Positions 7,447 to 28,320 of a stretch of 64,000 nucleotides of DNA are shown one piece after another. This stretch comes from an uncultured Acidobacteriota bacterium (lineage in GTDB: Bacteria > Acidobacteriota > Thermoanaerobaculia > Multivoradales > UBA5704). Every line of letters starts with the position of its first letter. Positions within the stretch are counted from its first letter, which is position 1. The notes beneath the pieces are model-generated. The model worked only from the letters and a program-made list of their open reading frames with translations, was not told the origin of the DNA and did no database searches. The position numbers and the translations under genes were made by a program. The DNA is taken from the NCBI GenBank assembly GCA_963755825.1, contig CAVWLA010000003.1, positions 1,088,940 through 1,152,939 on the forward strand, given 5' to 3'.

Positions 7447-7895
7447 CCGGCCGCGAGCTCATCGCGCTCCTGCCGCATCGGCCGCCCATGCTGCTGCTCG
7501 AGGATGCCGAGACGGAGGGCGACCGCGCTCTCGTCGCCCACCAGACGATCGCCGCCGAGAGCCCCTTCCTGGCCGGCCACTTCCCGGATTTCCCGGTCTG
7601 GCCCGGCGCCCTCCTCCTCGAGGCGATGGCGCAGACCACGGCGATCTACCTCCTCAGCACCCGCGACGGCCTCCGCGAGGGCGAGGTCCCGGTGCTCGGC
7701 GCCGTCGACTGCCGCTTTCTCCACCCGGTCTTCCCCGGCGACCGCATCGAATATCGCTCCGAGCTGGTGCGCCGCATCGGCGACCTCGGGCTCTTCCAGG
7801 TGACCGCGAGCCGCGGCGGCGAGGTGGTGGCGCGCGGGCGATTTTCGGCCGGACTCACCCAGCGCTCCGGTCTGACCGCTAAGATCTCGCCGTAG
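7443..7895 (+). CDS. 3-hydroxyacyl-ACP dehydratase, FabZ/FabA-like hotdog fold
   Basis: LPHRPPMLLLED...AGHFPDFPVWPGALLLEAMAQT matches the FabZ catalytic-His motif. GTG start overlaps the CLF stop (GTGA). Confidence 0.85.
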   Translation: MTGRELIALLPHRPPMLLLEDAETEGDRALVAHQTIAAESPFLAGHFPDFPVWPGALLLEAMAQTTAIYLLSTRDGLREGEVPVLGAVDCRFLHPVFPGDRIEYRSELVRRIGDLGLFQVTASRGGEVVARGRFSAGLTQRSGLTAKISP

Positions 7896-8642: not shown

Positions 8643-8656
8643 CGGCGCCGGCGGCC

Positions 8657-9958
8657 ATGGAACGACGCGTCGCCATCACCGGCATCGGCATGCTGAACGC
8701 CGCCGGCGCCGGCATCGATGCCATCTGGGAGCGGCTGCGCAGCGATCCGCCGCGGCCGGTGGAGTTCGCCGGAGCGCCGCCCACCGAGGGCATCCGCTTC
8801 CCCGTCTACCGGGCGGTCGACTACCGCCTCGCCGAGCTGCCGGTGCCGGCGCGCTGCCGGCGCTGGCTGGCCGAGGAGGGGCTCGAGCACCTCGTCGACC
8901 TCCGCCACCTGATCGGCGCCACGGCTCTCGCCCTCGACGACGCCGGCCTCGCCCCCCACCACGGCGGGGAGGAGCCGCCGGTCGCCGTCGTCGTCGCCGA
9001 CGAGAGCCCGGGATTCGACGCCCTCAGCCAGGCCCTCTTCGAGCTCGGACTCGAGGCGCCGGTGCCTGCCGAGCCGGCGGCGCGCTACGCTCATCTCGCG
9101 GGCCACTTCTTCCAGCTCAACAGCTTCCTCCTCCCCCACTACCTCGCCCGCGCCTTCGGTTTCGAGGGGCTGTCGCTGTTCGTCAACTCCGCCTGCACCT
9201 CGGGCTTGAACGCCCTCGAGATCGCGGCGCAGGAGATCCGCTCCGGCCGCTCGCTCGTCGCCCTCGCCGCCGCCGCCGACGATCCGCTCTCCGCCGCCAA
9301 GTTCCTCTGGTTCCACTCGCTCGGGCTCTACTCGACGGCGGGGACCCTGCGCCCGTTCGACGCCGAGCCGGCCGGCACGGTGTTCGGCGACGGCGGCGCC
9401 GCTCTCGTCCTCGAGGACCTGGAGAGCGCCCGCCGCCGCGGCGCGCGGATCTACGGCGAGCTCCTCGGCTGCGGCTTCGCGCAGGACGGCTGGAAGATCA
9501 CCGTGCCGCAGCCGACGCGCGCCCTCGCCGCCAAGGCGATCGAGCGGGCGCTCGCCGCCGGCCGGGTCGAGGCGGCGGCGGTCGATCTGGTCGTTCCCCA
9601 CGGCGTCGGCACCGCCGCCTCGGACGGCTACGAGGCGCTCGTCCTCCACCAGATCTTCGCGCCGCTGCCGCGCTGGCCGGCGGTGACCGCCTTCAAGCCG
9701 ATGATCGGTCACAACCTGGGCGGCGCCGCGCTGATGGAGATCGGCCTTCTGCTGGCGGCGATGTGGCACGGCTCCATCCCGCCGACCCTCGGTCACCGGC
9801 TGCCGCCGAAACGCCACCCGCTGCCGCTCGTCACCCGCTGGACGGAGCGGAGCGTCGAGCTGGCGGTCAAGCTCACCTGCGGCTTCGCCGGCTACTTCGG
9901 CGCCGCGGTCTTCCGGCGCCACGGCGGCGGCGCCGGCCAGGGAGCGGAATCGCCATGA
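8657..9958 (+). CDS. Beta-ketoacyl-ACP synthase (second KS)
   Basis: VAITGIGMLNAAG start, active-site Cys in NSACTSGLNALE, His in VPHGVGTAASD, His in MIGHNLGGAALME. Confidence 0.9.
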   Translation: MERRVAITGIGMLNAAGAGIDAIWERLRSDPPRPVEFAGAPPTEGIRFPVYRAVDYRLAELPVPARCRRWLAEEGLEHLVDLRHLIGATALALDDAGLAPHHGGEEPPVAVVVADESPGFDALSQALFELGLEAPVPAEPAARYAHLAGHFFQLNSFLLPHYLARAFGFEGLSLFVNSACTSGLNALEIAAQEIRSGRSLVALAAAADDPLSAAKFLWFHSLGLYSTAGTLRPFDAEPAGTVFGDGGAALVLEDLESARRRGARIYGELLGCGFAQDGWKITVPQPTRALAAKAIERALAAGRVEAAAVDLVVPHGVGTAASDGYEALVLHQIFAPLPRWPAVTAFKPMIGHNLGGAALMEIGLLLAAMWHGSIPPTLGHRLPPKRHPLPLVTRWTERSVELAVKLTCGFAGYFGAAVFRRHGGGAGQGAESP

Positions 9959-11103
9959 GAGACGCTGACAATCCGGTCGACCGGCTGATCGACGCGAGCT
10001 ACCTCGAGACCTCGCGGCGGGCGACGGACTACGTCGCCGCGCTGAGCGTCGGCATCCTCCGCGAGCTGGGGCTCTGGAACGCCGCGGACCTCGAGCAGCC
10101 GCGCACGGCGGGCGAGTGGATGACCGCGCTCGCCGTCGTCGAGGAGCTCGGCATCGCCTTCGCCTGGCTGCTCGAGGAGGGTCGGCGCCTCGGCGCCCTG
10201 GGCGTCGCGCCCGGCGGCGGCTCGCAGGCGCCGGCCGGGCCGCTCTACGCGCCCGCCGCGCCGGCGGTCGCCGAGGAGATCGTCGGCGGCCTGGCGGCGC
10301 TCCGCGACCGGGCGATCGGCTCGGGCTCGTCGCTCGAGATGTTCGACTACGTCGCCTCGCGCTACGTCGACTTCCTGCGCGGCCAGCGCTCGGGAAACGC
10401 CATCCTCTACAAGGGTGCGGCCCTCGAGGTGACCTGCCGCTACTACTCGGCGGCCAACCCGCTCTACGACGTCCACAACCAGCTCGGCTGGCTGGGCGTC
10501 GAGGCGGCCCTCGCCCGGCTCGGGCGCCCGGCGCGCCTGCTCGAGGTGGGCGCCGGCACCGGCGGCGCCACCGAGGCGGTGCTGCGCGGCCTGGCGGCGG
10601 GCGCGCCCGCCGCGGGCGGCAGCCTCGTCGTCACCGACATCTCTCCCTCGTTCGCGCTCGGCACCGTCGAGCGCCTGGCGAGCGGCGGCGCGCTGCCGAT
10701 CCCCCTCGAGCACCGCAAGCTCGACTTCACCCGCCCGCCGCTCGAGCAGGGCGTGGCGCCCGGCAGCGTCGACGTGATCCTGGCGGTCAACGCCCTCCAC
10801 AACGCCGGCGATCCCGTCGCCGCGCTCGCCAACCTGCGCTCCTACCTGGCGCCCGACGGCTCTCTGGTCGTCTCCGAGTCGATCTGCGACCCCGGCGCCC
10901 ACGTGCACCAGGAGTTCGTCTTCAACCTGCTGCCGTACGCCCCGCGCGGCCGCTTCCGCGCCGAGCCGCCGACCTCGCGCTTCCTCTCCGCCGCGGCGTG
11001 GGGAGAGATCCTCGGCGAGGCAGGGTACGGCGGCGAGGTGCGGCGCAACGGCGAGGGGCCGCAGCTGGCGCTCCTCGCCATCGCGCGGCCCGGCGGCCTC
11101 TGA
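9955..11103 (+). CDS. Class I SAM-dependent methyltransferase
   Basis: Motif I LLEVGAGTGGATEAV and motif II VDVILAVNALH. ATG at 9955 overlaps the KS2 stop (ATGA). The ORF-track start at 9763 would overlap KS2 extensively, so I trimmed it. Confidence 0.8.
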   Translation: MRDADNPVDRLIDASYLETSRRATDYVAALSVGILRELGLWNAADLEQPRTAGEWMTALAVVEELGIAFAWLLEEGRRLGALGVAPGGGSQAPAGPLYAPAAPAVAEEIVGGLAALRDRAIGSGSSLEMFDYVASRYVDFLRGQRSGNAILYKGAALEVTCRYYSAANPLYDVHNQLGWLGVEAALARLGRPARLLEVGAGTGGATEAVLRGLAAGAPAAGGSLVVTDISPSFALGTVERLASGGALPIPLEHRKLDFTRPPLEQGVAPGSVDVILAVNALHNAGDPVAALANLRSYLAPDGSLVVSESICDPGAHVHQEFVFNLLPYAPRGRFRAEPPTSRFLSAAAWGEILGEAGYGGEVRRNGEGPQLALLAIARPGGL

Positions 11104-11106
11104 CCG

Positions 11107-11127
11107 CGGATCGAGCGGCCGCCGCTC
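11107..11127. terminator. Palindrome GAGCGGCCGCCGCTC in the 22-bp gap between the convergent methyltransferase and LolA-like genes; candidate bidirectional terminator
   Basis: Inverted repeat read from the sequence. It overlaps the LolA-like stop codon. Confidence 0.25.
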
Positions 11128-12019
11128 AGGGGCCGCTGCGCACCAGGAGACCGCTCGCGACCCACGCGGTCCAGCGGTCGGCGACCGTCGGCAGCATGGC
11201 GGGCTCGAAGAGCTGTGGCCCGATGGCGGCGGGCAGCGCGCCGATGTCCCTCAAGGTGAGCACCGAGGAGCGGCCGCCGGCGAGGAGCATGGTCATCCTG
11301 AGCGGCGTCCACGACGTCCCCACCTGCCTGAACGCATCGATGCGGAGCTGCTTCTCGGGCGCTCCCGCCGCCTGGCGGAAGAAGTCGGCGCCGAGGATGA
11401 GCTGGCGGTCGGCGCTGAGGTAATAGCGAACGCGGGACCAGGCGGTGCTCTCGGCGACCGCCGGCGTCGCCGGCACGGCGTCGACCATCCACACCTCGCG
11501 GCCGCGCAGCAGGGTCTTCCCCGCCAGCGTCAGGCGGCGGCCGGCGGCCAGGCGCCAGCGCAGGTCGGTGTAGCTGAAGTCGGACCCCAGGAGCCCCTCC
11601 TCGAAGCGGCCCGGGGTGATCGTCAGCACCTGCCGGAGGCCGACCGGGAGGCGCATGTAGAGGGTCATGCCGGTCGGCACTTTCGGGTCCTCGTCGAGCA
11701 GATAGCTGGTGCCGCGCAGGCCGGCGGGCTGCTCGAGCACCACCAGGGAGCGCAGCTGATCGCCGATCGGGCGCCAGAAGTGGAGCACCGTGAAGGTGCG
11801 GGTGACCGTCGCGCCCGACTTGAGCTCGAGGTAGACCCGCCGCCAGCCGGGGCTGCCGAAGTCGCGGGCGTTGTAGGCGCGGACGAGCCCCGCGGCGTCC
11901 GCGGCGGCTGCCGGGGGAACGGCGGCGGTGGCGGCACGGGCTGCGGCGGCCGTCACCTCGGAACGGGTTCCGGCGACCGCCGCCAGCGCCAGCAGGGCGG
12001 CGAGGCATCTGGCTCTCAT
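11126..12019 (-). CDS. LolA-like outer-membrane lipoprotein carrier/sorting protein (signal peptide)
   Basis: 297 aa with N-terminal signal MRARCLAALLALAAVAG and a predicted beta-rich mature protein. It sits directly downstream of, and overlaps, the MMPL exporter gene, which is the LolA+MMPL pairing typical of aryl-polyene type clusters. The fold assignment comes from that context and my recollection of the family. Confidence 0.55.
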   Translation of the reverse strand: MRARCLAALLALAAVAGTRSEVTAAAARAATAAVPPAAAADAAGLVRAYNARDFGSPGWRRVYLELKSGATVTRTFTVLHFWRPIGDQLRSLVVLEQPAGLRGTSYLLDEDPKVPTGMTLYMRLPVGLRQVLTITPGRFEEGLLGSDFSYTDLRWRLAAGRRLTLAGKTLLRGREVWMVDAVPATPAVAESTAWSRVRYYLSADRQLILGADFFRQAAGAPEKQLRIDAFRQVGTSWTPLRMTMLLAGGRSSVLTLRDIGALPAAIGPQLFEPAMLPTVADRWTAWVASGLLVRSGP

Positions 12020-14328
12020 GGGTTCTCCCGGCGCAGGAAGGCGCAGCTCGGCACGACGAGGAGGGTGAGCGCCGCGCAGAGCGCCATGGCGAAGCAGACC
12101 AGGATGCCGAGCTCGCGGTTGGGCGGCACCACCGAGAAGCAGAGGACGGAGAAGCCGCTGACGATGGCGATCGTGCTGGCGAGGATCGCCGGCCCGGTCA
12201 TCACGTAGGCCTCGAGCATCGCCTCCCCGTCGCTCTTCGCCCGGCGGCGGACCTGGTATTGGGCCACCAGGTGGATGGCATAGTCGATGCCGATGCCGAG
12301 CGCGATGCTGGCGAACATCGAGTTCGCCGTGCCCAGCGGCACGCCGAGCGCCGCCAGGGTCCCCAGCACCAGCAGCACGCTCACCGCCACCGGCAGCACC
12401 GACATCAGCGCCGCGCGCAGCGAGCGGAAGAGGGCGAGCGTCAGCAGCAGGTCGAAGGCGAGGGCGAAGCCGATCGAGCGCGCCTGCCCGACCACCAGCG
12501 AGCGCACCGCCAGGTAGCCGATCCAGCCGTCGCCGAACGGCACCACGTGGGCGCCCTCGCCGAGCACCTGCTGCGCCGAGCGCTCGGCGAGCTCGAGCAC
12601 CTCGCGGATGCGCGAGTAGTTGGCGCCGCGGACGAAGACCAGCAGGTGGGCGTAGCGCGCCTCGCCGTCGAGCCGGCGGGCGCTGGAGAGCCGCATCGCC
12701 GAGCTGATGAGCACCACCGCCTGCTCGATCTCCTGCTGCGACAGCGAGCGCGTCCCCTGCTTGAGCTCGCGCCGGTAGGTCCGATAGTCGACGCGGGAGA
12801 GCGCCGCGGCGACGCGCACGACGTCGCCATACGGGCTCATCGTGGCGCCCACCCAGGGGCTGGCGGCCAGCCGGTCCTCGATCTCGCCGATCCCCCGGAG
12901 CGCTCCCGGCGCCAGGAAGCCGTCGCGGCCGCCGCTGTCGATCATCAGGTCGAGGGTGTTGGTGCCGGCGAGCAGCCGGTTGATGGCGCGATCCCCCCGC
13001 ACCGTCTCGCTCGCGGCGGGGAGGTTCCCCACCCAGTTGTCCTCGATCTTCAGGCGGGTGACGGCGAGGGCGAGCGCCGGGAGGGCGAAGAGGGCGACGG
13101 CGGCGAGCGCTCTCCCCGCCCCGCCGCCCGCCAGCCGCCGCGCGAACGACTCGAGGCCGCGCTCGGCGACGCGGGTGAACGGGCTGTCGCCGGGCTTCAG
13201 CTGGGGATCGATGAGCACCAGGAGGGCGGGGAGGAGGGTGAAGGTGAAGACCACCGAGAAGAAGACCGAGAGCGCGCCGTAGGTGCCGAAGATGCGCTGC
13301 GGCTCGAGCTTCACCACCGCCAGCGAGAGCAGCCCGGCGAGGGTCGCCGCCGCGGTGACGCGGATGGCCGGGATGACGAAGGAGAAGGCGACCAGGGCGG
13401 TCTCCGCCACCGGCCTCTGCGGTTGGCGGCGCGACTCGACGCAGAAGCGGTTGAGCGCGTAGACGTCGTCGGTGACGCCGATGACGATGAGGATGACCGG
13501 CAGAGTCAGAGTGGTGATGAAGACCGACTCGCCGCGGAGCCCCATCAGACCGAGCGTCCAGAGCAGGCTGACGCCGACCTCGATGAGCGAGGCGAGCGGC
13601 GGGATGGGATGCGCGAGGACGAGGCTCATCACCACGATGAGGACGACGATGACGATGGGGACCAGCCAGGCGAGGTCGTGCGCCGAGGTCACCCCGAGGG
13701 CCGCCTGCGCCATCACCGTGCCGCTCGAATAGAGGGGGAGGCCGCGGCGGCGATAGCGCGCCACCAGGCGGTCGATGCGAAGCCCGAGCTCGGCGCGGTC
13801 GGCCGCCGGCTCGACCTCGGCGTAGATGGCCGCCGCCCGCCCGTCGCGGGTCACCAGGATGCCGTCGTCGAGGCCGGTTTCGGCGGTCTCCCGCCGCAGC
13901 TGCCGCGCCATCCGCTCGTCGGCGGCGGCGCCGCGGGCGAGGAGCGCGCGCAGGTCGAGGTTGTCGCCCTCGAGCGAGAAGTGAGGCACGGTGGCGAGGC
14001 TGCTCACCGACTCCGGCAGGATCCCCTCGGTGGCGGCGAGGTCGCGGCTCAGCTCCTGCACCAGCCGCAGGGCGTCCGGCGTGAAGATCCCGCGGCCGCC
14101 GCCGGCTCCCCCGCCGTCGATACCGAGGACGACGACGTCGTTGAGGCCGAAGCGGCGCGCGGCGGAGTCGCTGGCGCGCATCTCGGGGGCGCCCTGCGGG
14201 ATGAGCGCGCGGGCGTCGAGCCGCAGGCGGACGCGGGGGATCGCGCAGCAGGCGAGGACCGTCAACAGCGCGGCGATGGCGACGATCAGCCGCGGATGGC
14301 GGACCGAGAAACGGAGGAGAAAGTGCAT
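12016..14328 (-). CDS. MMPL-family RND exporter (lipid/pigment exporter, ApeM/HpnN-like)
   Basis: Trimmed from the 1402-aa ORF to Met MHFLLRFSVRHPRLIVAIAALLTVL. It has two 6-TM bundles separated by periplasmic loops and ends ...VVPSCAFLRRENP. About 770 aa. Confidence 0.85.
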   Translation of the reverse strand: MHFLLRFSVRHPRLIVAIAALLTVLACCAIPRVRLRLDARALIPQGAPEMRASDSAARRFGLNDVVVLGIDGGGAGGGRGIFTPDALRLVQELSRDLAATEGILPESVSSLATVPHFSLEGDNLDLRALLARGAAADERMARQLRRETAETGLDDGILVTRDGRAAAIYAEVEPAADRAELGLRIDRLVARYRRRGLPLYSSGTVMAQAALGVTSAHDLAWLVPIVIVVLIVVMSLVLAHPIPPLASLIEVGVSLLWTLGLMGLRGESVFITTLTLPVILIVIGVTDDVYALNRFCVESRRQPQRPVAETALVAFSFVIPAIRVTAAATLAGLLSLAVVKLEPQRIFGTYGALSVFFSVVFTFTLLPALLVLIDPQLKPGDSPFTRVAERGLESFARRLAGGGAGRALAAVALFALPALALAVTRLKIEDNWVGNLPAASETVRGDRAINRLLAGTNTLDLMIDSGGRDGFLAPGALRGIGEIEDRLAASPWVGATMSPYGDVVRVAAALSRVDYRTYRRELKQGTRSLSQQEIEQAVVLISSAMRLSSARRLDGEARYAHLLVFVRGANYSRIREVLELAERSAQQVLGEGAHVVPFGDGWIGYLAVRSLVVGQARSIGFALAFDLLLTLALFRSLRAALMSVLPVAVSVLLVLGTLAALGVPLGTANSMFASIALGIGIDYAIHLVAQYQVRRRAKSDGEAMLEAYVMTGPAILASTIAIVSGFSVLCFSVVPPNRELGILVCFAMALCAALTLLVVPSCAFLRRENP

Positions 14329-14372
14329 CGAGAGGAGGGCCTCAGGCGGCGGGCGCTCCGGGAGGACAGCCG

Positions 14373-16256
14373 CTAACGCCGCTTGCCGCCGTGGGCGTCG
14401 GCCGCGGCTGGTGCCGCCGGTGCCGGCGGTATCGGCGCGGCCGGCGGAACCGCCAGCGCGCGCTGGGCCTTGGCGACGGCGTCCTCGGCGTAGGCCTCGC
14501 GGACGTTGAGCAGCTCGAAGGAGAGGTAGCGGTCTCCCTCGGCGCTCGCCGTCCAGCCGCGGTAGACCGGCGGCACCCGGAACATGAACTCCGGCCAGAA
14601 GCGCTCGGGCCCGACCTCGCGCCCGGCGACCTTGAAGTTGGGATCGATCTTGCCGTCGCCGTCGAGATCGGTGGGCAGCGTGTCGGGCTGGTAGAGGATC
14701 AGCGAGCGCAGGAACGCCTGCACGTCCTCGCGATCGGCCGCCGACGCCGCGGCGTACCGCTGCTGGGATTGCGCGGCCTCGCCGCCGTGGCGGCGGATGA
14801 CGTCGTCGAGGGAGGGGCTCTGGCCGTCGTGCCCGTAGGGGGCGCTGGAGCCGGCGCCCCACAGCGCCAGGGTGCGGAAGCGCTTGGTGACGAAGAGCTT
14901 GCCGTCGCGGTAGTCGTACTCCCAGAAGCGCTCGCCGAGGTCGTGATGGCGCAGGTCGGTGAAGACGTTGTCGACGGTGAAGCCGCCGCGCTTCGGCACC
15001 ACCAGCGTGCGGCCGTCCGCTCCCGGCACCTCGCGGGTGAGCGAGCGCATCGTCCCCTCGAGACGGCGGGCGGAATCGTTCCACGCCACGTGGAGGTCGA
15101 AGAAGCGGCGGTCGCCGGGCATGCCGGAGCGCTCGTCGGCGGGCAGGATGTCCCAGCGCGCGGTATGGCAGGAGGTGCAGGCCATGGCGTCCATCAGCCG
15201 GCGGCCGTGCTGGGTGCCGGCGGTCTGCGGCCCCACCGCCGGCGCCGGGTGGTTCATCAGGTACCACTCGAGGAGGTCGAGCTCGCCCTCGCCGATCTTG
15301 CCCCGCTGGTCCTTGTCCTTCAGCGCGGCGGGGTCGCCGGTGAGGAAGATCTCGGACTGCAGCGACCCGGCGTTGCTCCTCTTGCCCCAGTCGAGCAGCC
15401 AGAAGCCGGCGGGCGTGTGGGCGACGGGGACGTCGATGAGGATGCCGTTGATGGTGTTGAAGACGCCGATCGAGAACGAGCGCATAGAGGGGAACTGGTG
15501 GTCGCCCGCCGAGGTCGCGAAGGCGCCGATCTCCAAGTCGTAGCCGACGATGCCGGGCGTCGTCAGGCGGGCCACCTTGCCGTCCGGGGCCCGCTTCACC
15601 CGCTCGCCGTGGGCGCCCACCATCCGCACGATGAAGATGGGGTTCAAGTCGGGAAGGCCGTCGCCGTTGAGGTCGTCGAGCGGGCCGAAGTCGACCGTCA
15701 CGCCGGGCGACGACTCGATCACCGCGCGGCGCCCCTTGGTCTCGGCGGGGTAATCGAGGAAGCCGTTGTGGTTGGTGTCGTAGGCGTCGAGGATCTGCTG
15801 CCGGATCTGCAGACCGATGGTCTCGATCAGGCCGTCGCCGAAGAGGTGGGGGGCGTTGCGCCCCGGGCCCACCGGGATGGCGACGTCGCCGCCGGCTCCG
15901 GGGCTGGCGAAGGGGAGGTTGTGGCACATGCCGCAGGAGGTCGACGAGGTCGCCTCGGGCCGCTTGGGCAGCGAGCGCATGGCGCCGTCCTCGGCCCCCC
16001 ACTCGCGGAAGAAGTACCAGCGGCCGAGCTGATAGGTGAGCCAGGGGTCGTGCTGCTGGAGGTCCATCGAAGTGCCCGGCGCGCCCGGCGTCGACGAGTG
16101 CAGGACGCGCATCCGCGGCGTGCGGAGCGAGATGCCGCTGGGATCGTCGGGGCGGACGGAGAGCTGGGCGCCGGCGCGCACCGAGAGCGCCACCAGGGGG
16201 ACCAGCAGCAGCAGCAGGCTCCAACGCAAGGGCCGGTTATTGAGCGCTCGGCGCAT
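14373..16256 (-). CDS. Di-heme c-type cytochrome, DUF1111 / 'di-haem oxidoreductase, putative peroxidase'-like, secreted, with EF-hand-like Ca-binding loops
   Basis: Signal peptide. Two CxxCH motifs (CGMCHNL and CTSCHTARW). DxNxNG / DxDGDG loops (DTNHNGFLDYPAE, DDLNGDGLPDLN, DLDGDGKIDPN). 627 aa. Confidence 0.6.
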   Translation of the reverse strand: MRRALNNRPLRWSLLLLLVPLVALSVRAGAQLSVRPDDPSGISLRTPRMRVLHSSTPGAPGTSMDLQQHDPWLTYQLGRWYFFREWGAEDGAMRSLPKRPEATSSTSCGMCHNLPFASPGAGGDVAIPVGPGRNAPHLFGDGLIETIGLQIRQQILDAYDTNHNGFLDYPAETKGRRAVIESSPGVTVDFGPLDDLNGDGLPDLNPIFIVRMVGAHGERVKRAPDGKVARLTTPGIVGYDLEIGAFATSAGDHQFPSMRSFSIGVFNTINGILIDVPVAHTPAGFWLLDWGKRSNAGSLQSEIFLTGDPAALKDKDQRGKIGEGELDLLEWYLMNHPAPAVGPQTAGTQHGRRLMDAMACTSCHTARWDILPADERSGMPGDRRFFDLHVAWNDSARRLEGTMRSLTREVPGADGRTLVVPKRGGFTVDNVFTDLRHHDLGERFWEYDYRDGKLFVTKRFRTLALWGAGSSAPYGHDGQSPSLDDVIRRHGGEAAQSQQRYAAASAADREDVQAFLRSLILYQPDTLPTDLDGDGKIDPNFKVAGREVGPERFWPEFMFRVPPVYRGWTASAEGDRYLSFELLNVREAYAEDAVAKAQRALAVPPAAPIPPAPAAPAAADAHGGKRR

Positions 16257-18195
16257 GGCTCGCCACCGTCTCCTTCTTGGGCAGCCCGCCGAGCACGTCG
16301 GGAAAGCCGTCGTGATCGGCGTCCGCTCGATAGGGCAGGTTGAGGCCGAAGGCCTCGGGGATGTTGGTGATCACCTGCAGCAGCCTGGCGTGGCCGCGCG
16401 GATCGGTGACCGTCGCCAGATAGCGGTAGACCGGCGGATGCTTGAACAGGAAGTGGGCGTCGAAGCGCTCGTAGCCGACGCTCTGGCCGGCGACCTTGAA
16501 GTCGTCGGCGATCTTGCCGTCGCCGTCGATGTCGGCGGGGATCTCGGTCGTCGGATAGAGCACCAGCGAGCGCAGGTACTCGAGCAGCAGCTCGCGCTTC
16601 GCCTCCGGCAGGGCGCGATAGGCGGCGGCCTCCGCCTCGGCGCTGCCGCCGTGCGCCCAGATCGCGGTGTCCAAGGTGGCGAAGTTGCCGCCGTGACCGT
16701 ACGGCCCCGTGCTGCCGGCGCCCCACAGCGGCGCCGTGCGGTGCTCGCGCTGCAGGGTGCCGTCGAAGCGGCGCTCGAAGAAGGCCGGCCCGATGTCCCA
16801 GTGCTTGAAGTCGCTGTAGACCCGCGGCACGGCGGCGGCGGCGCCGCTCGGCGACAGATCGCCCTTGGCGGAGCGCTTCCACAGCCGCTCGAGCGAGCCG
16901 ACGATCTCGGTCGAGCCGTCCGCGGCGACCCGGCTGTGGGTCGCCAGGTGGAAGAGGCGGCGGTCGCCGCTGAAGCCGAGCTTGTCGTCGCGCGCCTCGA
17001 CGCGCCAGCTCTCGACGTGGCAGCGGGTGCAGCCGATCTCGGTCAGCACGGCGCGGCCCTCTTCGCTGTGCGCCGTCGGCCGCACCGTCGGCGGCGGGGT
17101 GTGCAGGATGTAGAACTCGATGGCGTCGAGATCGCCCTCGGTGAGCTCGCTGACGACGCCGTCGTGGTCGGGATCGTCGAGCGAGATGCCGCCCGCCGTG
17201 CGCCGCAGGCCGGGATCGACCGAGCCGCCGAAGTCGTACTGCTGGGCGCCGTTCAGCGACACCCGGGCGCGGCCGCCGTAGCCGCTCGGCCCGCCGTTGG
17301 CGTTCTGCTGCGTCGGATCGTGGGCCTGGAGGCCCATGTGGACGTCGGCGGCGGTGGCGTAGAACTCGCGCACCGTCGCCGCCTCGCCGCCCTGCGAGAT
17401 GCGGCGCTCGCCGACCCGCCGGTAGCCGCGGCCCCAGCCGAAGGGCTCCATGGCGAAATCGAACGCCGCCACCCGCGGATCGTCGAGGCCGACGGCGTCC
17501 TTGATCACCTTGCCGGCGCTGTCGACGTACCAGAGGCGGAAGACGGTGTTGAGGCGCGGCACGCCGTCGGCGCCGGGCGCCAGATCGCCGTAGTCGATCG
17601 CCGGGGCGTCCGGGCGCGGCCGGATGAGCGCCGGCATCGCCGCCTTCACCTCGGCGCGGTCGATGACGCCGTTGTGGTTGGTGTCGTATTGATTCATCAG
17701 CATCGTGCGCACCTGCGCGCCGAGCATCTCGACCAGGCCGGCGCCGTAGAAGTGCGTCGTGTTGCGCCCGAAGCCGCTGGTCGAGGCGATGGTCTGGCCG
17801 GAGGAGGGCTCGCTGTAGACGCTCGAGTGGCACATGCCGCAGCTGGCGGCGTGGTTGCGCGCGAAGCGCGCCCCGCCGTGCACCAGCCCCTGCGTCGGCT
17901 CGGCGTAGAGCGGCACGTCGAGGGCGCCGATGCGGCCGTAGACGCCGTGCTTGAGCTCGAACTGGCGGTTCACCAGGTCGCGGCCGGTCTGGTACAGCAG
18001 GAAGGGGTCGTGCGCCCGCAGATCCGCCGTGGCGCCGCGCTTGGCGGTGTCGGTGGAGGAGACGAGATGGATCAGCGGATAGGGGATCGCCGTGCCGGTC
18101 GGATCGCTCGCGTTCTCCGCGACCTGAGCCCACACCGCGGCGACAGATCCGAGGAGCAGAACCGCGAAGAGACCTTTGCCGACCTCGCCTGCCAT
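16237..18195 (-). CDS. Di-heme c-type cytochrome, paralog of the previous gene (DUF1111-like)
   Basis: CGMCHSS and CTRCHVESW heme-binding motifs, DTNHNGVIDRAE and DIDGDGKIADD loops, signal peptide MAGEVGKGLFAVLLLGSVAAVWAQV. Its stop overlaps the start of the downstream paralog by about 20 nt. Confidence 0.6.
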   Translation of the reverse strand: MAGEVGKGLFAVLLLGSVAAVWAQVAENASDPTGTAIPYPLIHLVSSTDTAKRGATADLRAHDPFLLYQTGRDLVNRQFELKHGVYGRIGALDVPLYAEPTQGLVHGGARFARNHAASCGMCHSSVYSEPSSGQTIASTSGFGRNTTHFYGAGLVEMLGAQVRTMLMNQYDTNHNGVIDRAEVKAAMPALIRPRPDAPAIDYGDLAPGADGVPRLNTVFRLWYVDSAGKVIKDAVGLDDPRVAAFDFAMEPFGWGRGYRRVGERRISQGGEAATVREFYATAADVHMGLQAHDPTQQNANGGPSGYGGRARVSLNGAQQYDFGGSVDPGLRRTAGGISLDDPDHDGVVSELTEGDLDAIEFYILHTPPPTVRPTAHSEEGRAVLTEIGCTRCHVESWRVEARDDKLGFSGDRRLFHLATHSRVAADGSTEIVGSLERLWKRSAKGDLSPSGAAAAVPRVYSDFKHWDIGPAFFERRFDGTLQREHRTAPLWGAGSTGPYGHGGNFATLDTAIWAHGGSAEAEAAAYRALPEAKRELLLEYLRSLVLYPTTEIPADIDGDGKIADDFKVAGQSVGYERFDAHFLFKHPPVYRYLATVTDPRGHARLLQVITNIPEAFGLNLPYRADADHDGFPDVLGGLPKKETVASHAPSAQ

Positions 18196-18495
18196 TCCGG
18201 TTGTCCAGCCCACCGCTCGCCGAACGTGATGCCGCGAAAAAGGGTTAGCTTTGGCCGCGAAGTATTCCACGCTGGTGGGTGACCGTCAACCGCGCCGGCG
18301 CCTCGCTCGACGCTTGAGGCTCGTCGCAAATGTGGGTCCGGTGCGCCGCCCGCACCATTGCGCATGGACGTAGCGTGTGCGCAAGCTGCGGCGGCCCGCC
18401 GGAGCCTTCTCCAGGGCCCCGCCGCCGCGGCCGCGGCGTGCTACCATTGAGCGCAACTGGCGACCAGCAAGAACTTCCGGAGATTTAGAATCGTC

Positions 18496-20757
18496 ATGTC
18501 TCCTCGCCCTGCCGTGCCCGCTCCGACCTCACCCTCCCGAGGCGCTCTCGGAATCGCCCTCGCCCTCGTCGTCGGCGCCGCCGGCGCCGGCCTGGCGCGC
18601 GCCGACTGGCCGTCCTGGCGCGGGCCGCGGCAGGACGGCGTCGCCGCCGATCAGAACCTGATCTCGAGCTGGTCGCCGGCGGGCAAGAACCTGGCGTGGC
18701 GGGCCGACCTCGTCGGCCGCTCGACGCCGGTAGTCTTCGCCGGCCGGGTGTGCGCCACCGGCCGCGCCGGCAGCGGCCTCGACCGCCAGGAGACGGTCGC
18801 CTGCTTCGACGCCGCGAGCGGCAAGAAGCTGTGGGAGCGCCGGCTCGACATCTATCTCACCGCGGTGCCGTTCAGCCGCGTCGGCTGGGGGAACCTGGCG
18901 GCCGATCCGGAGAGCGGCGACATCTACGACCTGGGCGTCGGCGGCCTCCTCGTCTGCTTCAGCCGCGACGGCGACATCCGCTGGTGGCGGTCGTTGACCG
19001 AGGAGTTCGGCCTGATCTCCGGCGTCGGCGGCCGCACCCACTCGCCGCTGGTCGACGAGAACCGCCTCATCGTCAGCTTCGTCAGCATCGGCTGGGGCGA
19101 CCAGGGGCCGCCGCGCCACCGCACCTACGCCTTCGACAAGAAGAGCGGCGAGCTGCTGTGGGTCGCGGCGCCCGGCGAGCTGCCGCAGGACTTCAACACC
19201 CAGACGACACCGGTGGCGGCGGTCATCGGCGGCCAGCGCCTGCTCATCGAGGGCGAAGCCGACGGCTGGGTGCACGCCATCCAGGCGCGCACCGGCGAGC
19301 GGGTCTGGCGCTACCACCTGAGCAAGGGAGCCCTCAACAACACCGTCACCGTGCACGGCGACGAGATCTTCGCCAGCCACGGCGAGGAGAACTTCGACAG
19401 CGGCGCGCAGGGGCGCGTGGTGGCGATCGACGGCCGCGGCAGCGGCGACGTCACCAAGACGCACGAAACCTGGCGCAACGACGACGTGGTGGCGAGCTTC
19501 TCGACCCCGCTCTACCACGACGGCCTGCTCTACCTGGTCGACAACTCCTCGAGCCTCGCCTGCCTCGACGCGGCGAGCGGCAAGATCCTGTGGCGGAAGA
19601 AGATCGGCCGCATCGGCAAGGCCTCGCCGGTGTGGGGCGACGGCAAGCTCTACGTGCCGGAGGCGACCGGCACCTTCACCATCCTCAAGCCCAGCCGCAG
19701 CGGCGCCGAGGTGCTCGACCGCGAGGAGATCCGCCTCGCCGACGGCAGCCGCCCGGCCGAGATCTACTTCTCGCCGGCGATCGCCTACGGCCGCATCTTC
19801 CTGTCGACCGAGGGCGGCCTGTTCAGCCTCGGCGACCGCGCGGCCGGCCTGCGCCCCGACGCCGAGCCGTCGGCCGGCTACCCCGCCGAGAGCGCCGAGA
19901 CGCCGGCGAGCGCCGGCCCCCCGGCCGTCCTCCACGTCGAGCCGGCGGAGGTGATGATCCACCCCGGCGACTCGGTGCGCTTCCGGCTCGCCGCCTTTGA
20001 CGCTCACGGCCGCGCCCTGCCGGCGCCGGCGAGCGCCGCCTGGACCCTCCGCGGCCTCGCCGGCACGGTCGCCGCCGACGGCACCTTCGCCGCCACCCCC
20101 GGCCGCGCCTTCTCGACCGGAGCGGTCGCCGCCGCGGCGGGCGGCCTGCAGGCGGTCGCCCGCGTCCGCGTCGTCCCCGACCTCCCCTGGCAGGAGGACT
20201 TCGAGTCGATCGCGCCCGGCCAGGCGCCCGCCGGCTGGGTCGGCGCGCCCGGCAAGTTCGCCGTCCAGGCGACCGCCGACGGCAAGGTGCTGGTCAAGCC
20301 GCCGGCGCAGCGCGGCCTCGATCGCTCGAACCTCTACATCGGGCAGCCGACGCTGCACGACTACACCGTCGCCGCCGATCTCCTCGGCACCCAGGCGCCC
20401 GAGAAGGCCGTGCCGCGGCCGGACATGGGCCTCATCGCGAGCGGCTACGTCCTCGACCTGCAGGGCATCCACCAGCGCCTGCAGGTGCGCGCCTGGGACA
20501 CCGAGCTGCGGCTGATGGAGCAGACCGATTTTCCCTGGGACGCCAACACCTGGTACACCATGAAGCTCGCGGTCGACACCCGCGGCAAGGAGGGGCTCAT
20601 CCGCGCCAAGGTCTGGCGCCGCGGCGAGCCCGAGCCCGCCGCCTGGACGCTCACCGCCCACGATCCGCACCCGGTGCGCCAGGGCAGCCCCGGGCTCTAC
20701 GGCTACTCGCCGGCCGAGATCCGCTTCGACAACCTGAAAGTGACGGCCAACCCGTGA
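18496..20757 (+). CDS. Secreted PQQ-like beta-propeller repeat protein (BamB-like) with a roughly 300-aa C-terminal non-propeller domain
   Basis: Signal peptide, N-terminal ADWPSWRGPRQDG, repeated 'tgk.lW' blades (ASGKKLWERRL, KSGELLWVAA, RTGERVWRYH, ASGKILWRKK). The C-terminal ~300 aa are Ala-rich and non-repetitive. Confidence 0.8.
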   Translation: MSPRPAVPAPTSPSRGALGIALALVVGAAGAGLARADWPSWRGPRQDGVAADQNLISSWSPAGKNLAWRADLVGRSTPVVFAGRVCATGRAGSGLDRQETVACFDAASGKKLWERRLDIYLTAVPFSRVGWGNLAADPESGDIYDLGVGGLLVCFSRDGDIRWWRSLTEEFGLISGVGGRTHSPLVDENRLIVSFVSIGWGDQGPPRHRTYAFDKKSGELLWVAAPGELPQDFNTQTTPVAAVIGGQRLLIEGEADGWVHAIQARTGERVWRYHLSKGALNNTVTVHGDEIFASHGEENFDSGAQGRVVAIDGRGSGDVTKTHETWRNDDVVASFSTPLYHDGLLYLVDNSSSLACLDAASGKILWRKKIGRIGKASPVWGDGKLYVPEATGTFTILKPSRSGAEVLDREEIRLADGSRPAEIYFSPAIAYGRIFLSTEGGLFSLGDRAAGLRPDAEPSAGYPAESAETPASAGPPAVLHVEPAEVMIHPGDSVRFRLAAFDAHGRALPAPASAAWTLRGLAGTVAADGTFAATPGRAFSTGAVAAAAGGLQAVARVRVVPDLPWQEDFESIAPGQAPAGWVGAPGKFAVQATADGKVLVKPPAQRGLDRSNLYIGQPTLHDYTVAADLLGTQAPEKAVPRPDMGLIASGYVLDLQGIHQRLQVRAWDTELRLMEQTDFPWDANTWYTMKLAVDTRGKEGLIRAKVWRRGEPEPAAWTLTAHDPHPVRQGSPGLYGYSPAEIRFDNLKVTANP

Positions 20758-22226
20758 CGACGAGGCCGCGAGCCGCGCTCCTCCTCTCCCTCCTGCTGGC
20801 GGCGGCGAGCGCCGCCGCCGGCGATCCGCCCGCCGACCACGGAATGTTCGGCGGCACCCCATCCCGCAACATGGCGTCGGACGAGAAGGGGCTCCCCACC
20901 CGCTTCGACCCGGCGACGGGCTTGAACATCAAGTGGGCGGTGGACCTCGGCTCGCAGAGCTACGGCGGCCCGGTGGTCGCCGGCGGCAAGGTCTTCGTGG
21001 GCACCAACAACGAGGGGCACAAGAACCCCAAGATCGTCGGCGATCGCGGCGTCATCATGGCCTTCGACGCCGCCGACGGCCGCTTCCTCTGGCAGGCCAC
21101 CCACGACAAGCTGAGCGCCGGCAAGGTCAACGACTGGCCGCTGCAGGGCATCTGCTCGACGCCGGCGATCGAGGGCGACCGCCTCTACTACGTCTCCAAC
21201 CGCGACGAGCTGATCTGCGCCGACACCGAGGGCTTCCGCGACGGCAAGAACGACGGTCCCTTCACCGCCGAGACCGACGCCGGCGAGACCGGCGCCGACT
21301 TCATCTGGAAGCTCGACCTCATCAGCACCTTCCACGTCTATCCCCACAACCAGTCGGCGAGCAGCCCGCTGGTGATCGGCGACCTCGTCTACATCGTCAC
21401 CGGCAACGGCGTCGACGAGGGGCACATCAACGTCCCGTCGCCCCAGGCGCCGAGCTTCATCGCCGTCGACAAGGCGACCGGCAAGGTGGCATGGACGAGC
21501 GCGCTGCCCGGCGAGCACATCCTCCACGGCCAGTGGTCGAGCCCGTCGTACGGCGTCCTCGACGGCCGGCCGCAGGTGCTCTTCGGCGGCGGCGACGGCT
21601 GGCTCTACGCCCTCGAGCCGAAGACCGGCAAGCTGCTCTGGAAGTTCAACTGCAATCCCAAGGACGCCGTCTACACGATCGGTCCCGGCTCGACCAAAAA
21701 CAACATCATGGCGATGCCGGTCATCCTGGGCGACATGGTCTACATCGCGGTCGGCGAGGACCCCGAGCACGGCGAGGGGATCGGCCACCTCTGGGCGCTG
21801 CGCCCGCGCGGCCTCGGCGACCTCACCGACAAGGCGGTGGTCTGGCATCGCGACGGCGAGGCGTTCCATCGCAGCCTGTCGACGGTCGCCGTCGCCGACG
21901 GCCTGCTCTTCACCGCCGACTTCTCCGGCTATGTCTACTGCCTCGACGCCGCCACCGGCCAGCTCTATTGGATCTACAACTCCTTCGGCGCCATCTGGGG
22001 CTCGCCGATGGTCGCCGACGGCAAGGTCTACATCGGCAACGAGGACGGCGACGTCGCCGTGCTGCGCGCGGCGCGCAAGCTCGAGGTGCTCCACAAAGTC
22101 AACATGGGGAGCGCCGTCTACAGCACCGTGGTGGCGAAGAAGGGCGTCCTCTACATCACCGCGCGGTCGAAGCTCTTCGCCATCGCCGAGGGGATCCCGG
22201 CGCACCCCGCGGCTCCGCCGCACTAG
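20754..22226 (+). CDS. Secreted PQQ-like beta-propeller repeat protein (BamB-like); paralog of the gene at 49929
   Basis: Signal peptide, GGKVFVGTNNEG, repeated blades (ADGRFLWQA, ATGKVAWTS, KTGKLLWKF, ATGQLYWIY). ATGA overlap with the upstream gene. Confidence 0.8.
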   Translation: MTTRPRAALLLSLLLAAASAAAGDPPADHGMFGGTPSRNMASDEKGLPTRFDPATGLNIKWAVDLGSQSYGGPVVAGGKVFVGTNNEGHKNPKIVGDRGVIMAFDAADGRFLWQATHDKLSAGKVNDWPLQGICSTPAIEGDRLYYVSNRDELICADTEGFRDGKNDGPFTAETDAGETGADFIWKLDLISTFHVYPHNQSASSPLVIGDLVYIVTGNGVDEGHINVPSPQAPSFIAVDKATGKVAWTSALPGEHILHGQWSSPSYGVLDGRPQVLFGGGDGWLYALEPKTGKLLWKFNCNPKDAVYTIGPGSTKNNIMAMPVILGDMVYIAVGEDPEHGEGIGHLWALRPRGLGDLTDKAVVWHRDGEAFHRSLSTVAVADGLLFTADFSGYVYCLDAATGQLYWIYNSFGAIWGSPMVADGKVYIGNEDGDVAVLRAARKLEVLHKVNMGSAVYSTVVAKKGVLYITARSKLFAIAEGIPAHPAAPPH

Positions 22227-23507: not shown

Positions 23508-24846
23508 ATGACTGAGCCGTCCCTCCAGCCCGCCAACCTGCCGCCGCCGATCGAGCCCGCCACCGTCGGCAGCCTGTTCGTCGCCAACTATCCGCCCTTC
23601 TCGTTCTGGGATTCGGCGGCGCTGCCGGAGATCCATGCGGCGCTCGCCAGCGCCGCCCGCCCGGATGTGCCTCTGGGCCTATACCTTCATATTCCATTCT
23701 GTCGCAAGCGCTGCAAGTTCTGCTACTTCCGGGTCTTCACCGAGATGGACGCGGCGCGCATCGAACCGTTATCTCGACGCCGTCGTGCGCGAGGTCGAGG
23801 CCTACGCCGCGCTGCCGGCGACCGGCGCGCGGCCGCTCCGCTTCGTCTACTTCGGCGGCGGCACGCCGTCGCTGCTCTCCGTCCACCAGCTCAACGGCCT
23901 CTTCAACCGCCTGCGCCGGGTGATGCCGTGGGACGGCGCCGAGGAGATCACCTTCGAGTGCGAGCCCGGCACCCTGACCGAGCCGAAGGTCAAGGCGATC
24001 CGCGCCATGGGCATCACCAGGCTCTCGCTCGGGGTGGAGAACTTCAACGACGCCATCCTCAAGGAGAACGGCCGCGCCCATCTCTCGGCCGAGATCTACC
24101 GCGTCATGCCATGGATCCAGGCGGCCGGCTTCGACCAGCTCAACATCGACCTCATCGCGGGGATGGTCGGCGAGACCTGGGAGACCTGGAAGGAGAGCGT
24201 GCAGCGGGCGATCGACCTGGGGCCGGACAGCGTCACCATCTACCAGCTCGAGCTCCCCTACAACACGGTCTTCTCGCAGAGCCTGCTCAAGGACGCCGCG
24301 GCGCTGCCGGTCGCCGACTGGGAGACCAAGCGCGCCTGGCACCAGCACGCCTTCGAGCAGCTCGCCGGCGCCGGCTACGCGATGTCGAGCGCCTACACCA
24401 TGGTGCGCAAGGACAGGCCCTGCCGCTTCGTCTACCGCGACTCGGTCTGGCACGGCTGCGACCTGCTGGGCGTCGGGCTGTCGTCGTTCTCGCACGTCAA
24501 CGGCACCCACTTCCAGAACGTCGCGTCGTGGAACGGCTACCTCGACGAGGTGGAGGCCGGGCGGCTGCCGCTCGACCGCGGCTGCCTGCCGAGCGTCTAC
24601 GAGCGGATGACGCGGGAGATGATCCTGCAGCTCAAGATGGGCCGCCTCGACGCCGCCTACTTCCGCTCCAAGTTCGGCGTCGACGTGCTCGCCGACTTCG
24701 CGCCCGCCTGGGAGCGCCTCGAGCGCGAGGGGATGCTGGAGATGCGCGGCGCCGGCGCCGAGCTCACCCGCACCGGGCTGCTGCGCGTCGACATGCTTCT
24801 CCCCGAGTTCTACGACGAGCGCTATCGCAACGCGCGCTACACCTGA
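23508..24846 (+). pseudogene. HemN/HemW-like radical SAM enzyme (oxygen-independent coproporphyrinogen-III oxidase family) interrupted by a 1-nt frameshift near 23764
   Basis: The N-terminus sits in one frame: LYLHIPFCRKRCKFCYF (CX3CX2C) ...EMDAARIE up to about 23765. The rest sits in a second frame: NRYLDAVVREVE..., FVYFGGGTPSLLS. Both halves are HemN-like, and the switch lies within 23763-23766. Confidence 0.7.
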
Positions 24847-28316: not shown

Positions 28317-28320
28317 AGCC

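Follow-up and report, generated by a model that had tools for sequence, protein, structure and literature searches.

What are two secreted heme proteins doing directly upstream of a set of export genes? The question is raised by a 64,000-nucleotide stretch of DNA (hereafter the window) from an uncultured Acidobacteriota bacterium (Thermoanaerobaculia; Multivoradales; UBA5704; assembly GCA_963755825.1, contig CAVWLA010000003.1, positions 1,088,940 to 1,152,939), in which two adjacent genes for di-heme c-type proteins, here called DHOR-B (upstream) and DHOR-A (downstream), precede genes for an MMPL-type exporter and a LolA-like periplasmic carrier. A sequence-only reading of this DNA had offered two explanations: that the heme proteins oxidatively process the exported lipid in the periplasm, or that they are an unrelated peroxidase pair that hitch-hiked into the operon. 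We report that the B/A pair, together with genes for a DUF6073 protein, the LolA-like carrier and the MMPL exporter, forms a previously undescribed, conserved genomic module, and that the two proteins probably carry out an undescribed periplasmic oxidation step on a polyene lipid.

A gene module conserved across four phyla

Seventy-nine loci were obtained by scanning a single genome for each species; they were searched by tblastn with the window proteins, and a neighbor-joining tree was built from 105 full-length relatives of the two DHOR proteins. The tree splits three ways, into an A-type clade, a B-type clade and a group of single-copy relatives. Linkage was counted as homologues within 10 kb at 21 non-redundant loci reached via protein A and, with the same flank sizes, at 60 loci of the single-copy clade. 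DUF6073 was found at 19 of the 21 pair loci, a LolA-like gene at 16 and an MMPL gene at 15, versus 0/60 in the single-copy clade for each of the three. Co-occurrence of the cytochromes with MMPL and LolA in related genomes had been set beforehand as a test of the sequence-only reading, and these counts bear it out. The linkage spans Acidobacteriota, Myxococcota, Bacteroidota and Alphaproteobacteria, the carriers being Thermoanaerobaculia and other Acidobacteriota, Pyrinomonadaceae, Bryobacteraceae, a Saprospiraceae metagenome-assembled genome (MAG), Pyxidicoccus sp. MSG2, Primorskyibacter sp. 2E107 and Tropicibacter sp. S64. In the reciprocal search, DHOR genes were present on three of four long contigs reached through DUF6073 homologues.

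The order of the genes varies. Most loci read MMPL-LolA-B-A-DUF6073, with DUF6073 directly after A; the window reads B-A-MMPL-LolA, and in it DUF6073, overall the most constant neighbor of the pair, is some 10 kb distant, on the far side of a polyketide synthase (PKS) operon. The order in Pyxidicoccus is B-A-SnoaL-DUF6073-GST-MMPL-LolA, and MMPL is divergent in one locus (L003) and downstream in another (L020). The LolA-like gene and DHOR-B share 4-8 nt in four loci (L002-L005).

A-type and B-type genes are seldom found apart: B stands immediately 5' of A, and the B-to-A pair is found in all but one of the 21 loci. The nearest orthologues of both proteins come from a JGI metagenome and from MAGs of Thermoanaerobaculia and other Acidobacteriota. 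The A-type and B-type subtrees branch in parallel (window with L087, L022 with L023, L014 with L024, L015 with L017), which argues for an old duplication after which the pair was inherited as a unit. The single-copy relatives, which are 34-43% identical to A and occur in Planctomycetota, Nitrospirota, Obscuribacterales, Wallbacteria, Armatimonadota and other groups, agree with A at positions where B carries fixed changes (H438 to W, R489 to A, N113 to S, E556 to R), suggesting that A is closer to the ancestral enzyme and that B is a specialized partner.

The single-copy clade shows a second uncharacterized conserved pairing. The single DHOR gene, at about position 10001, is immediately preceded by a DUF2330 gene in five of seven loci checked (L025, L051, L062, L063 and L069, with two copies in L051). 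Members of the clade are found in MAGs of Planctomycetota, Obscuribacterales, Armatimonadota, Opitutales and Alcaligenaceae.

The DHOR-B/DHOR-A genes and their operon

The GC content of the window is about 72%, so long spurious open reading frames (ORFs) appear in every frame, and the real frames were picked out by second- and third-position GC. Third-position GC is 0.93-0.94 in the frames of DHOR-A and DHOR-B, and an independent public gene call on the same DNA gives identical products of 652 (B), 627 (A), 770 (MMPL) and 297 (LolA-like) amino acids. The two adjacent minus-strand genes for secreted di-heme c-type proteins are real, and they match what had been noticed from the letters alone, two secreted paralogues that each have exactly two CxxCH motifs and EF-hand-like loops. 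BLASTP aligns the two proteins over about 600 residues at 32% identity (E = 3e-87). Sec-type signal peptides lacking a lipobox cysteine can be read from both sequences, MAGEVGKGLFAVLLLGSVAAVWA followed by Q in DHOR-B, and one ending ...SVRAGA before Q in DHOR-A.

Other frames and starts were rejected. The long alternative-frame ORFs (12016..16224 on the minus strand, 15827..18133, plus-strand ORFs and others over 14373..18282) reach 1,402 amino acids and overlap the real genes; they were set aside as high-GC artefacts because their translations are rich in Arg and Pro and they have no coding pattern of third-position GC. A GTG at 18270 was considered as the DHOR-B start, but it falls inside a promoter-like match, and both the signal peptide and the public gene calls fit the ATG at 18195.

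The four genes B, A, MMPL and LolA-like look like one transcription unit, given a spacer between A and MMPL that holds neither a terminator-like nor a promoter-like site and a sole sigma-70-like match located just upstream of the B start codon. Between positions 10900 and 18600 one such match was found where 0.2 were expected. The stop codon of B overlaps the start of A by exactly 20 nt, consistent with the earlier estimate of about 20 nt, and this arrangement points to translational coupling; in relatives the two genes overlap by 4-38 nt (L002, L003, L004, L005, L087) or stand 19 nt apart (L001). The gap to MMPL had been put at 45 nt and is 44 nt, the MMPL ATG lying at 14328 and not 14329, one base from the position implied before. 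The LolA-like gene in turn overlaps the MMPL stop by 4 nt, and the view that the pair is directly upstream of, and operonic with, the MMPL-LolA module stands. An internal promoter or terminator in the 44-nt spacer had been named as evidence that would break this link; no promoter-like or terminator-like site was found there, and its RNA fold is no better than that of shuffled sequences (z = 0.2).

Heme motifs, putative ligands and calcium-type loops

Each protein contains four cysteines, all within its two CxxCH motifs, and two such motifs were present in 111 of 112 homologous ORFs, the single exception being cut by a contig end. Residue conservation was assessed in an alignment of 37 family members. 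Both proteins carry the MauG motif P-Y-x-H-x-G, in which, in the A-type alignment, P473 is nearly invariant, G475 invariant and H476 nearly invariant, all three being conserved in A-type and B-type proteins alike. In a profile alignment to the cytochrome c peroxidase of P. aeruginosa (1eb7; numbering counted from the printed alignment), H490 of A falls on Met275, which we take to be the methionine ligand of the high-potential (His/Met) heme of bacterial cytochrome c peroxidases (bCCPs). The histidine at this position (H490 in A, H515 in B) is invariant across A-type, B-type and single-copy relatives, so in place of the His/Met ligation of bCCPs a His/His C-terminal heme is predicted. Also conserved in all three groups, along with the heme motifs, are W368/W397, a DRRxF motif, W466/W491 and H476/H501, and a GRN-x-P motif follows heme 1.

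Of the calcium-type loops, B has a canonical one, where Pfam EF-hand_1 matches residues 166-188 (E = 6.9e-6; 25.7 bits versus a cut-off of 25.4) around the 12-residue loop DTNHNGVIDRAE. Further loops in B are DPDHDG at residue 341, DIDGDG at 555 and DADHDG at 625, and three loops with invariant or nearly invariant residues are found in A (Table 1).

Family placement and structure

Searches with hidden Markov models had been suggested as a check on whether the proteins belong to DUF1111 or to the bCCP/MauG enzymes, and they identify both as di-heme relatives of DHOR, as had been guessed. PF06537 (DHOR/DUF1111) matches both B (41.6 bits, E = 7.7e-11) and A (36.9 bits, E = 2e-9) above its cut-off of 22, and it matches all 37 aligned relatives (best E = 6e-17). 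In each protein no more than the final 92 of the 499 profile positions (408-499) are matched. The bCCP and MauG models fared poorly: PF03150 (CCP_MauG) gave no significant match, with weak hits in 7 of the 37 members (best E = 0.013), and among the NCBIfam models the MauG-like TIGR03981 scored 19.7 bits against a cut-off of 340 (E = 3e-4) and the MbnH model TIGR04039 scored 13.9 against 363 (E = 0.02). PF21419 (RoxA-like_Cyt-c) matched 31 of the 37 members weakly (best E = 5.6e-6) and was not listed for the window protein A at E <= 1. When the family profile was run against PDB sequences, it found only the C-terminal motif, in bCCPs, MauG, a 'di-heme enzyme' and the gamma subunit of hydrazine synthase, at E >= 1e-3.

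A and B belong to a small, divergent clade of the DHOR/bCCP/MauG/RoxA superfamily. A total of 536 homologues of DHOR-A were found, and relatives carry the NCBI name 'di-heme oxidoredictase family protein'; an exhaustive HMMER scan of 1.84 billion representatives returned 68 clusters at E <= 1e-30 and 2083 at E <= 1e-3, which makes the clade a small one set inside a larger family. The AlphaFold2 model of A (pLDDT 77.9, pTM 0.82) has about 20 strands and extra beta-rich domains.

Genomic context of the pair

Coordinates of the pair, its motifs and its neighbors are collected in Table 1. The DUF6073 protein is, by its profile and its model alike, a secreted homologue of DynF: the model (pLDDT 81) retrieved the DynF structure 6ubl_A by Foldseek (E = 4.8e-12, TM 0.74), and the family profile found DynF in the PDB at E = 9.9e-14. 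DynF, of the dynemicin pathway, is an eight-stranded barrel that was crystallized with palmitate inside and is proposed to bind the heptaene made by the enediyne polyketide synthase (PKSE), and the first steps after the PKS cannot proceed without its orthologue Sgd15 (PMC8725005). Two further genes of enediyne type, encoding a DUF1702 protein (E3/UnbL type) and an FG-GAP and UnbV_ASPIC protein (E4/UnbV type), lie near DUF6073 in the window; the DUF1702 family has been drawn as an 'enediyne biosynthesis protein' (PMC7692728 Fig. 1). Orthologues of UnbV stand beside DHOR pairs in L018, L021 and L086, and a more distant UnbV-type relative (31% identity) does so in L087. The UnbV gene is followed by a gene for a membrane protein, cut by the window edge, that has only a weak RnfD-like match and takes the same post-UnbV position in L086, L018 and L021; it is possibly E5/UnbU-like. 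In L086 the DUF1702-UnbV-membrane protein trio comes after DUF6073, and in L018 and L021 it is found flanking DHOR pairs.

Table 1. Positions in the window of the DHOR-B/DHOR-A pair, its sequence motifs and neighboring genes (residue numbers are those of the proteins).
Feature	Position	Strand	Evidence or detail
DHOR-B, upstream di-heme c-type protein	16237..18195	-	ORF, ATG at 18195
DHOR-A, downstream di-heme c-type protein	14373..16256	-	ORF
B stop/A start overlap	16237..16256	-	sequence; TAA 16237-16239, ATG 16256
A-to-MMPL spacer, no terminator or promoter signal	14329..14372	-	
Sigma-70-like promoter match upstream of B ATG, TTGACG-17-AATACT	18261..18289	-	consensus match only
A heme motif 1, CGMCH, residues 108-112	15921..15935	-	C108, C111, H112 invariant
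A heme motif 2, CTSCH, residues 360-364	15165..15179	-	C360, C363, H364 invariant
A PYGHDG (473-478) through H490, putative sixth ligand of C-terminal heme	14787..14840	-	alignment
A EF-hand-like loop DTNHNGFLD, residues 160-168	15753..15779	-	D160, N164, G165, D168 invariant; N162 nearly
A loop DLNGDGLPD, residues 195-203	15648..15674	-	P202 invariant; D195, D199 nearly
A loop DLDGDGKID, residues 530-538	14643..14669	-	D530 invariant; G533, D534, G535 nearly
B heme motif 1, CGMCH, residues 119-123	17827..17841	-	sequence and family alignment
B heme motif 2, CTRCH, residues 389-393	17017..17031	-	sequence and family alignment
B PYGHGG (498-503) through H515, equivalent of A H490	16651..16704	-	alignment
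B canonical EF-hand loop, residues 171-182	17650..17685	-	Pfam EF-hand_1 match
B C-terminal loops DIDGDGKIADDF (555) and DADHDGFPDVLG (625)	16288..16533	-	sequence
MMPL/RND-type inner-membrane exporter	12016..14328	-	PF03176 E = 5.9e-24, plus Patched and sterol-sensing domains
LolA-like (PF17131/TP_0789-like) periplasmic carrier	11126..12019	-	PF17131 E = 1.9e-19
DUF6073, DynF-like secreted beta-barrel	3658..4575	-	PF19550 E = 1.9e-24
DUF1702 protein (enediyne E3/UnbL type)	2573..3589	-	PF08012 E = 5e-101
FG-GAP and UnbV_ASPIC protein (enediyne E4/UnbV type)	600..2594	-	Pfam
Membrane protein after UnbV gene, cut by window edge	1..573	-	62% identity to L086 13988-14995
Type II PKS operon: acyl carrier protein (ACP), ketosynthase (KS), chain length factor (CLF)-like, FabA-type dehydratase, ketoreductase (KR), KS, methyltransferase	5074..11103	+	convergent
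Two divergent PQQ_2/BamB-like beta-propeller genes	18496..22226	+	divergent from B promoter region
TonB-dependent receptor	26169..28316	+	
Flavin-dependent halogenase	28303..29592	+	CmlS-like, E = 7e-51
GT1/GT4 glycosyltransferase	29556..30899	+	

Between DUF6073 and the export genes lies the type II PKS operon, which also adjoins MMPL, LolA, DUF6073 and DHOR genes in L086 and L008. A rearranged form of the window gene set recurs in L086, and parts of it in L008, L018 and L021, and the L086 orthologue of the dehydratase matches ApeP/ApeI-like models. No tblastn match to a PKSE with a DynE7/CalE7/SgcE10-type thioesterase was found within the 64-kb window, which has the type II PKS instead. In Primorskyibacter, Tropicibacter and Pyxidicoccus, a PKS of about 1,900 amino acids with the order KS, acyltransferase (AT), KR and dehydratase (DH) stands beside the module, and the thioesterase that follows it in Primorskyibacter finds DynE7, SgcE10 and CalE7 at E = 6e-42 to 3e-36. 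This enediyne-type PKSE/thioesterase heptaene cassette (L004/L022, L023 and L001; L004 1..2427 in Primorskyibacter sp. 2E107, L001 20872..21824) thus occurs in Rhodobacterales and a myxobacterium, directly beside DUF6073-MMPL-LolA-B-A. NCBIfam returned no specific enediyne-PKS name for the L004 PKS fragment, and its identification as a PKSE is based on domain order, size and the DynE7-type thioesterase. Polyene-PKS, DUF1702 or UnbV genes were present within 10 kb in 9 of 24 loci, the window included.

The export genes had been seen in the frame of aryl polyene (APE) or flexirubin export. Type II PKS genes with MMPL and LolA do fit that frame, but it is too narrow, as the most constant partner is DUF6073 and the accessory genes are of enediyne type. 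Our literature search found no paper linking DUF1111/DHOR, DUF6073 or MMPL to such clusters, and none on DUF6073 or PF06537.

In L002, L005, L011, L013 and L024 (at about 1400..4700) a MacB_PCD/FtsX permease gene and an AHSA1 (START-like) gene precede MMPL-LolA-B-A-DUF6073, and pairs of M16 peptidase genes follow the module in several of these Thermoanaerobaculia loci, which points to a larger locus for envelope lipid or lipoprotein trafficking.

On the other side of the pair, additional PQQ_2/BamB-like propeller genes follow the first two on the plus strand (24932..26167, about 35843..37090 and about 50001..51329), and PQQ_2-type propellers stand beside DHOR pairs in seven other loci, as Ank-PQQ_2 fusions in L003, L005, L006 and L087 and also in L007, L013 and L024. 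Between the propeller genes is a radical SAM gene of HemN/HemW/ChuW type (23728..24846, plus strand), for which a heme-handling role serving the neighboring c-type cytochromes is conceivable. Downstream of the propellers (26169..31615, plus strand) are genes for a TonB-dependent receptor, a halogenase, a GT1/GT4 glycosyltransferase and an ABC ATPase. Two of these products, the halogenase and the glycosyltransferase, could be further tailoring enzymes for the same polyene lipid.

Proposed function and alternative explanations

The conserved linkage leads us to reject hitch-hiking and to favor action on the exported lipid, so that oxidative processing is the better supported, and as yet unproven, of the two explanations first offered. 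Specifically, we propose that A and B make up a periplasmic di-heme c-type oxidoreductase, either as its two subunits or as enzymes acting one after the other, and that they tailor a polyene-derived lipid by oxidation, a proposal that we judge about as apt to prove right as wrong. The sequences show the gene anatomy, the heme motifs, the family placement, an ancient inheritance as a pair and the conserved linkage, and we infer heterocomplex formation, heme ligation, the identity of the substrate and the type of reaction.

The proposed mechanism would begin with Sec export of A and B, covalent heme being attached in the periplasm, and with translational coupling setting a fixed ratio of the two. 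The C-terminal heme would be six-coordinate with two histidines (H364 and H490 in A) and would transfer electrons or oxidizing equivalents, leaving the N-terminal heme (C108/C111/H112) as the presumed reactive site. A, which keeps the residue set of the single-copy relatives, is likely the catalytic subunit, with B as its diverged partner. The substrate would be a polyene-derived lipid from the adjacent PKS, which is a type II system here and, elsewhere, a PKSE/thioesterase heptaene cassette. The MMPL pump would extract this lipid from the inner membrane, and the LolA-like protein and the DynF-like DUF6073 barrel would carry it in the periplasm. On its way to the outer membrane, or ahead of that transfer, the lipid would be tailored by the pair using O2 or H2O2. 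The reaction could be an oxygenation, a dehydrogenation, a coupling or, as in RoxA, a C=C cleavage; the sequence cannot choose among these.

A bolder version of this proposal can be offered only tentatively, and we judge it less likely than not to hold: the B/A pair might supply the periplasmic oxidation that is missing from a Gram-negative, enediyne-related pathway, as a c-type di-heme heterocomplex that takes a conjugated polyene from the DynF-like barrel and, by O2- or H2O2-driven desaturation, oxygenation or cyclization, turns this linear polyene into the mature envelope lipid or a warhead-like product.

Several observations weigh against a tailoring enzyme for polyene lipids. Fifteen of the 24 loci, mostly from Thermoanaerobaculia, have no PKS within 10 kb, their neighbors being MacB/FtsX, AHSA1, M16 peptidases and propellers, and in these the substrate could be another envelope lipid or a lipoprotein. 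Many of the loci counted cannot be taken as independent of one another, since they belong to related Thermoanaerobaculia MAGs. Nor is the pairing strictly obligate: A occurs alone in L006, and only B is seen in L086. Only the C-terminal fifth of each protein aligns to known di-heme enzymes, and Foldseek found no PDB neighbor for the model of A (best E = 0.87), so neither the active-site geometry nor a relation to RoxA is structurally established.

A first alternative is a protective role. In this explanation A and B would be a bCCP-like peroxidase pair that removes H2O2 or lipid hydroperoxides and so shields an oxidation-prone polyene lipid, which it leaves unmodified. Membership of the bCCP/MauG superfamily, the alignment of the C-terminal motif to several cytochrome c peroxidases and the secreted location all agree with this, and protection would explain the polyene linkage too. 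The details are less accommodating. The methionine ligand of the bCCP electron-entry heme is an invariant histidine here, just 7 of 37 members match PF03150 (E >= 0.013), A and B have double the size of a bCCP and extra beta-rich domains, and no recurrent gene for a small cytochrome c or cupredoxin donor was seen in the gene tables (L001-L006, L086 and L087 among the loci). Simple detoxification, moreover, needs no two anciently diverged, co-inherited paralogues. We therefore consider a protective peroxidase pair improbable.

We attach a similarly low probability to a protein-modifying role, in which the pair, like MauG or MbnH, would oxidize a neighbor (DUF6073, UnbV, the LolA-like protein or a PQQ_2 propeller) to make a cofactor or cross-link. 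The genes of MauG and MbnH adjoin those of their protein substrates, DUF6073 directly follows A in most loci, and both the weak TIGR03981 and TIGR04039 similarity and the MauG-type PYxHxG motif point the same way, but the scores are far under the family cut-offs (20 versus 340 bits). As for a target, the conserved W96 (in 'GW') and C220 of DUF6073 recur in actinobacterial DynF, where there is no DHOR partner, and they are therefore better explained by structural or ligand-binding roles than as modification sites.

The chances are slimmer that the pair is catabolic, cleaving an external polyunsaturated polymer or lipid (polyisoprenoid or carotenoid) in the manner of RoxA and RoxB while the neighboring carriers import the fragments. 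The size of about 70 kDa, the two hemes, the PF21419 matches in 31 of 37 members and the TonB-dependent receptor downstream would suit this, and RoxA and RoxB are paralogues that act together (synergistically) on a polyunsaturated hydrocarbon chain (PMC6311187). The linked genes, however, are biosynthetic (PKS, thioesterase, methyltransferase) and accompanied by MMPL-type exporters, the RoxA structure 4b2n was not retrieved by profile or Foldseek searches, the predicted fold is beta-rich, and the second histidine falls at the bCCP position (14 versus 124 residues from the motif histidine). Finally, an unrelated pair, independent of its neighbors and in the operon by chance, can appeal only to the absence of a described heme-protein role in aryl-polyene export and is very improbable indeed, because the linkage to DUF6073, LolA-like and MMPL genes (19, 16 and 15 of 21 loci) is kept across four phyla despite rearranged gene order, down to the 4-8 nt LolA-like/B overlaps, and is 0/60 in the sister clade.

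The DHOR/DUF1111 family has no demonstrated reaction, and its sole discussed role is in iron-uptake operons; the present clade gives it a different, testable context, in which a co-inherited di-heme pair is linked to a DynF homologue and to lipid export by MMPL and LolA-like proteins. If a polyene is indeed its substrate, the pair would represent a new reaction class for the bCCP/MauG/RoxA superfamily, part of polyene-lipid maturation would take place in the periplasm, and Pyxidicoccus, Primorskyibacter and Tropicibacter would be cultured Gram-negative systems for the E3, E4 and DynF-type roles shared with enediyne pathways. Were the pair the oxidase of an enediyne-related pathway, it would offer a first biochemical handle on the post-PKSE steps involving E3, E4, E5 and DynF.

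Comparison with known systems

A and B resemble canonical DUF1111 proteins in exceeding the PF06537 gathering cut-off, in having two CxxCH motifs and in being secreted; they differ in that only profile positions 408-499 align and in the duplication of the gene into a conserved B/A pair. The canonical context of DUF1111 is an iron-uptake operon of the form EfeO/imelysin-DUF1111-imelysin-DUF1513, whereas here the neighbors are DUF6073, LolA-like, MMPL and polyene PKS genes. Imelysin, EfeO and DUF1513 were absent among the 24 Pfam-scanned genes between 600 and 31615 and from the gene tables of L001-L006 and L086-L089.

With bCCP (1eb7) and MauG the pair shares two c-type hemes and an alignable C-terminal motif, F-R-x-x-P-L-x-x-x-x-x-T-A-P-Y-x-H-x-G. 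Unlike these enzymes, A and B are about twice the size, have added beta-rich and EF-hand-like segments and an invariant histidine in place of Met275, and match PDB entries weakly (E >= 1e-3). The likeness to RoxA and RoxB extends to secretion, a mass of about 70 kDa, two CxxCH motifs, the MauG-type motif and a C-terminal heme with two histidines, the last being a prediction for A and B. RoxA has almost no beta-sheet, and 124 residues separate its motif histidine from the second histidine further on (PMC6311187), whereas A has about 20 strands in its model, a second histidine 14 residues after the motif histidine and a biosynthesis and export context. The structure 4b2n gave no match in the family profile search at E <= 10 and none by Foldseek. 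With the Met ligand replaced and no significant PF03150 match, A and B are not bCCPs, nor can they be placed demonstrably in the RoxA or MauG families.

The wider cluster recalls two biosynthetic systems. Like enediyne warhead sets, the window and related loci contain DUF1702, UnbV and a DynF homologue, and some relatives add a PKSE-like PKS and a DynE7-type thioesterase. Departures from enediyne clusters are the Gram-negative hosts, the signal peptide on the DynF homologue and, in the window, a type II PKS in place of the PKSE; to our knowledge, described enediyne clusters are without di-heme cytochromes, MMPL and LolA-like genes, and our literature search found no paper on enediyne clusters with MMPL. 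Like APE and flexirubin clusters, the window has ACP, KS/CLF, FabA-type dehydratase, KR and methyltransferase genes next to MMPL and LolA-like genes, and we know of no APE cluster that encodes heme proteins or homologues of DynF, DUF1702 or UnbV. With regard to aryl starter-unit and lipid-anchoring functions (ligase, acyltransferase, glycosyltransferase), the GT1/GT4 gene at 29556..30899 and the halogenase gene at 28303..29592 were noticed. The window cluster thus fits neither the aryl-polyene nor the enediyne description fully.

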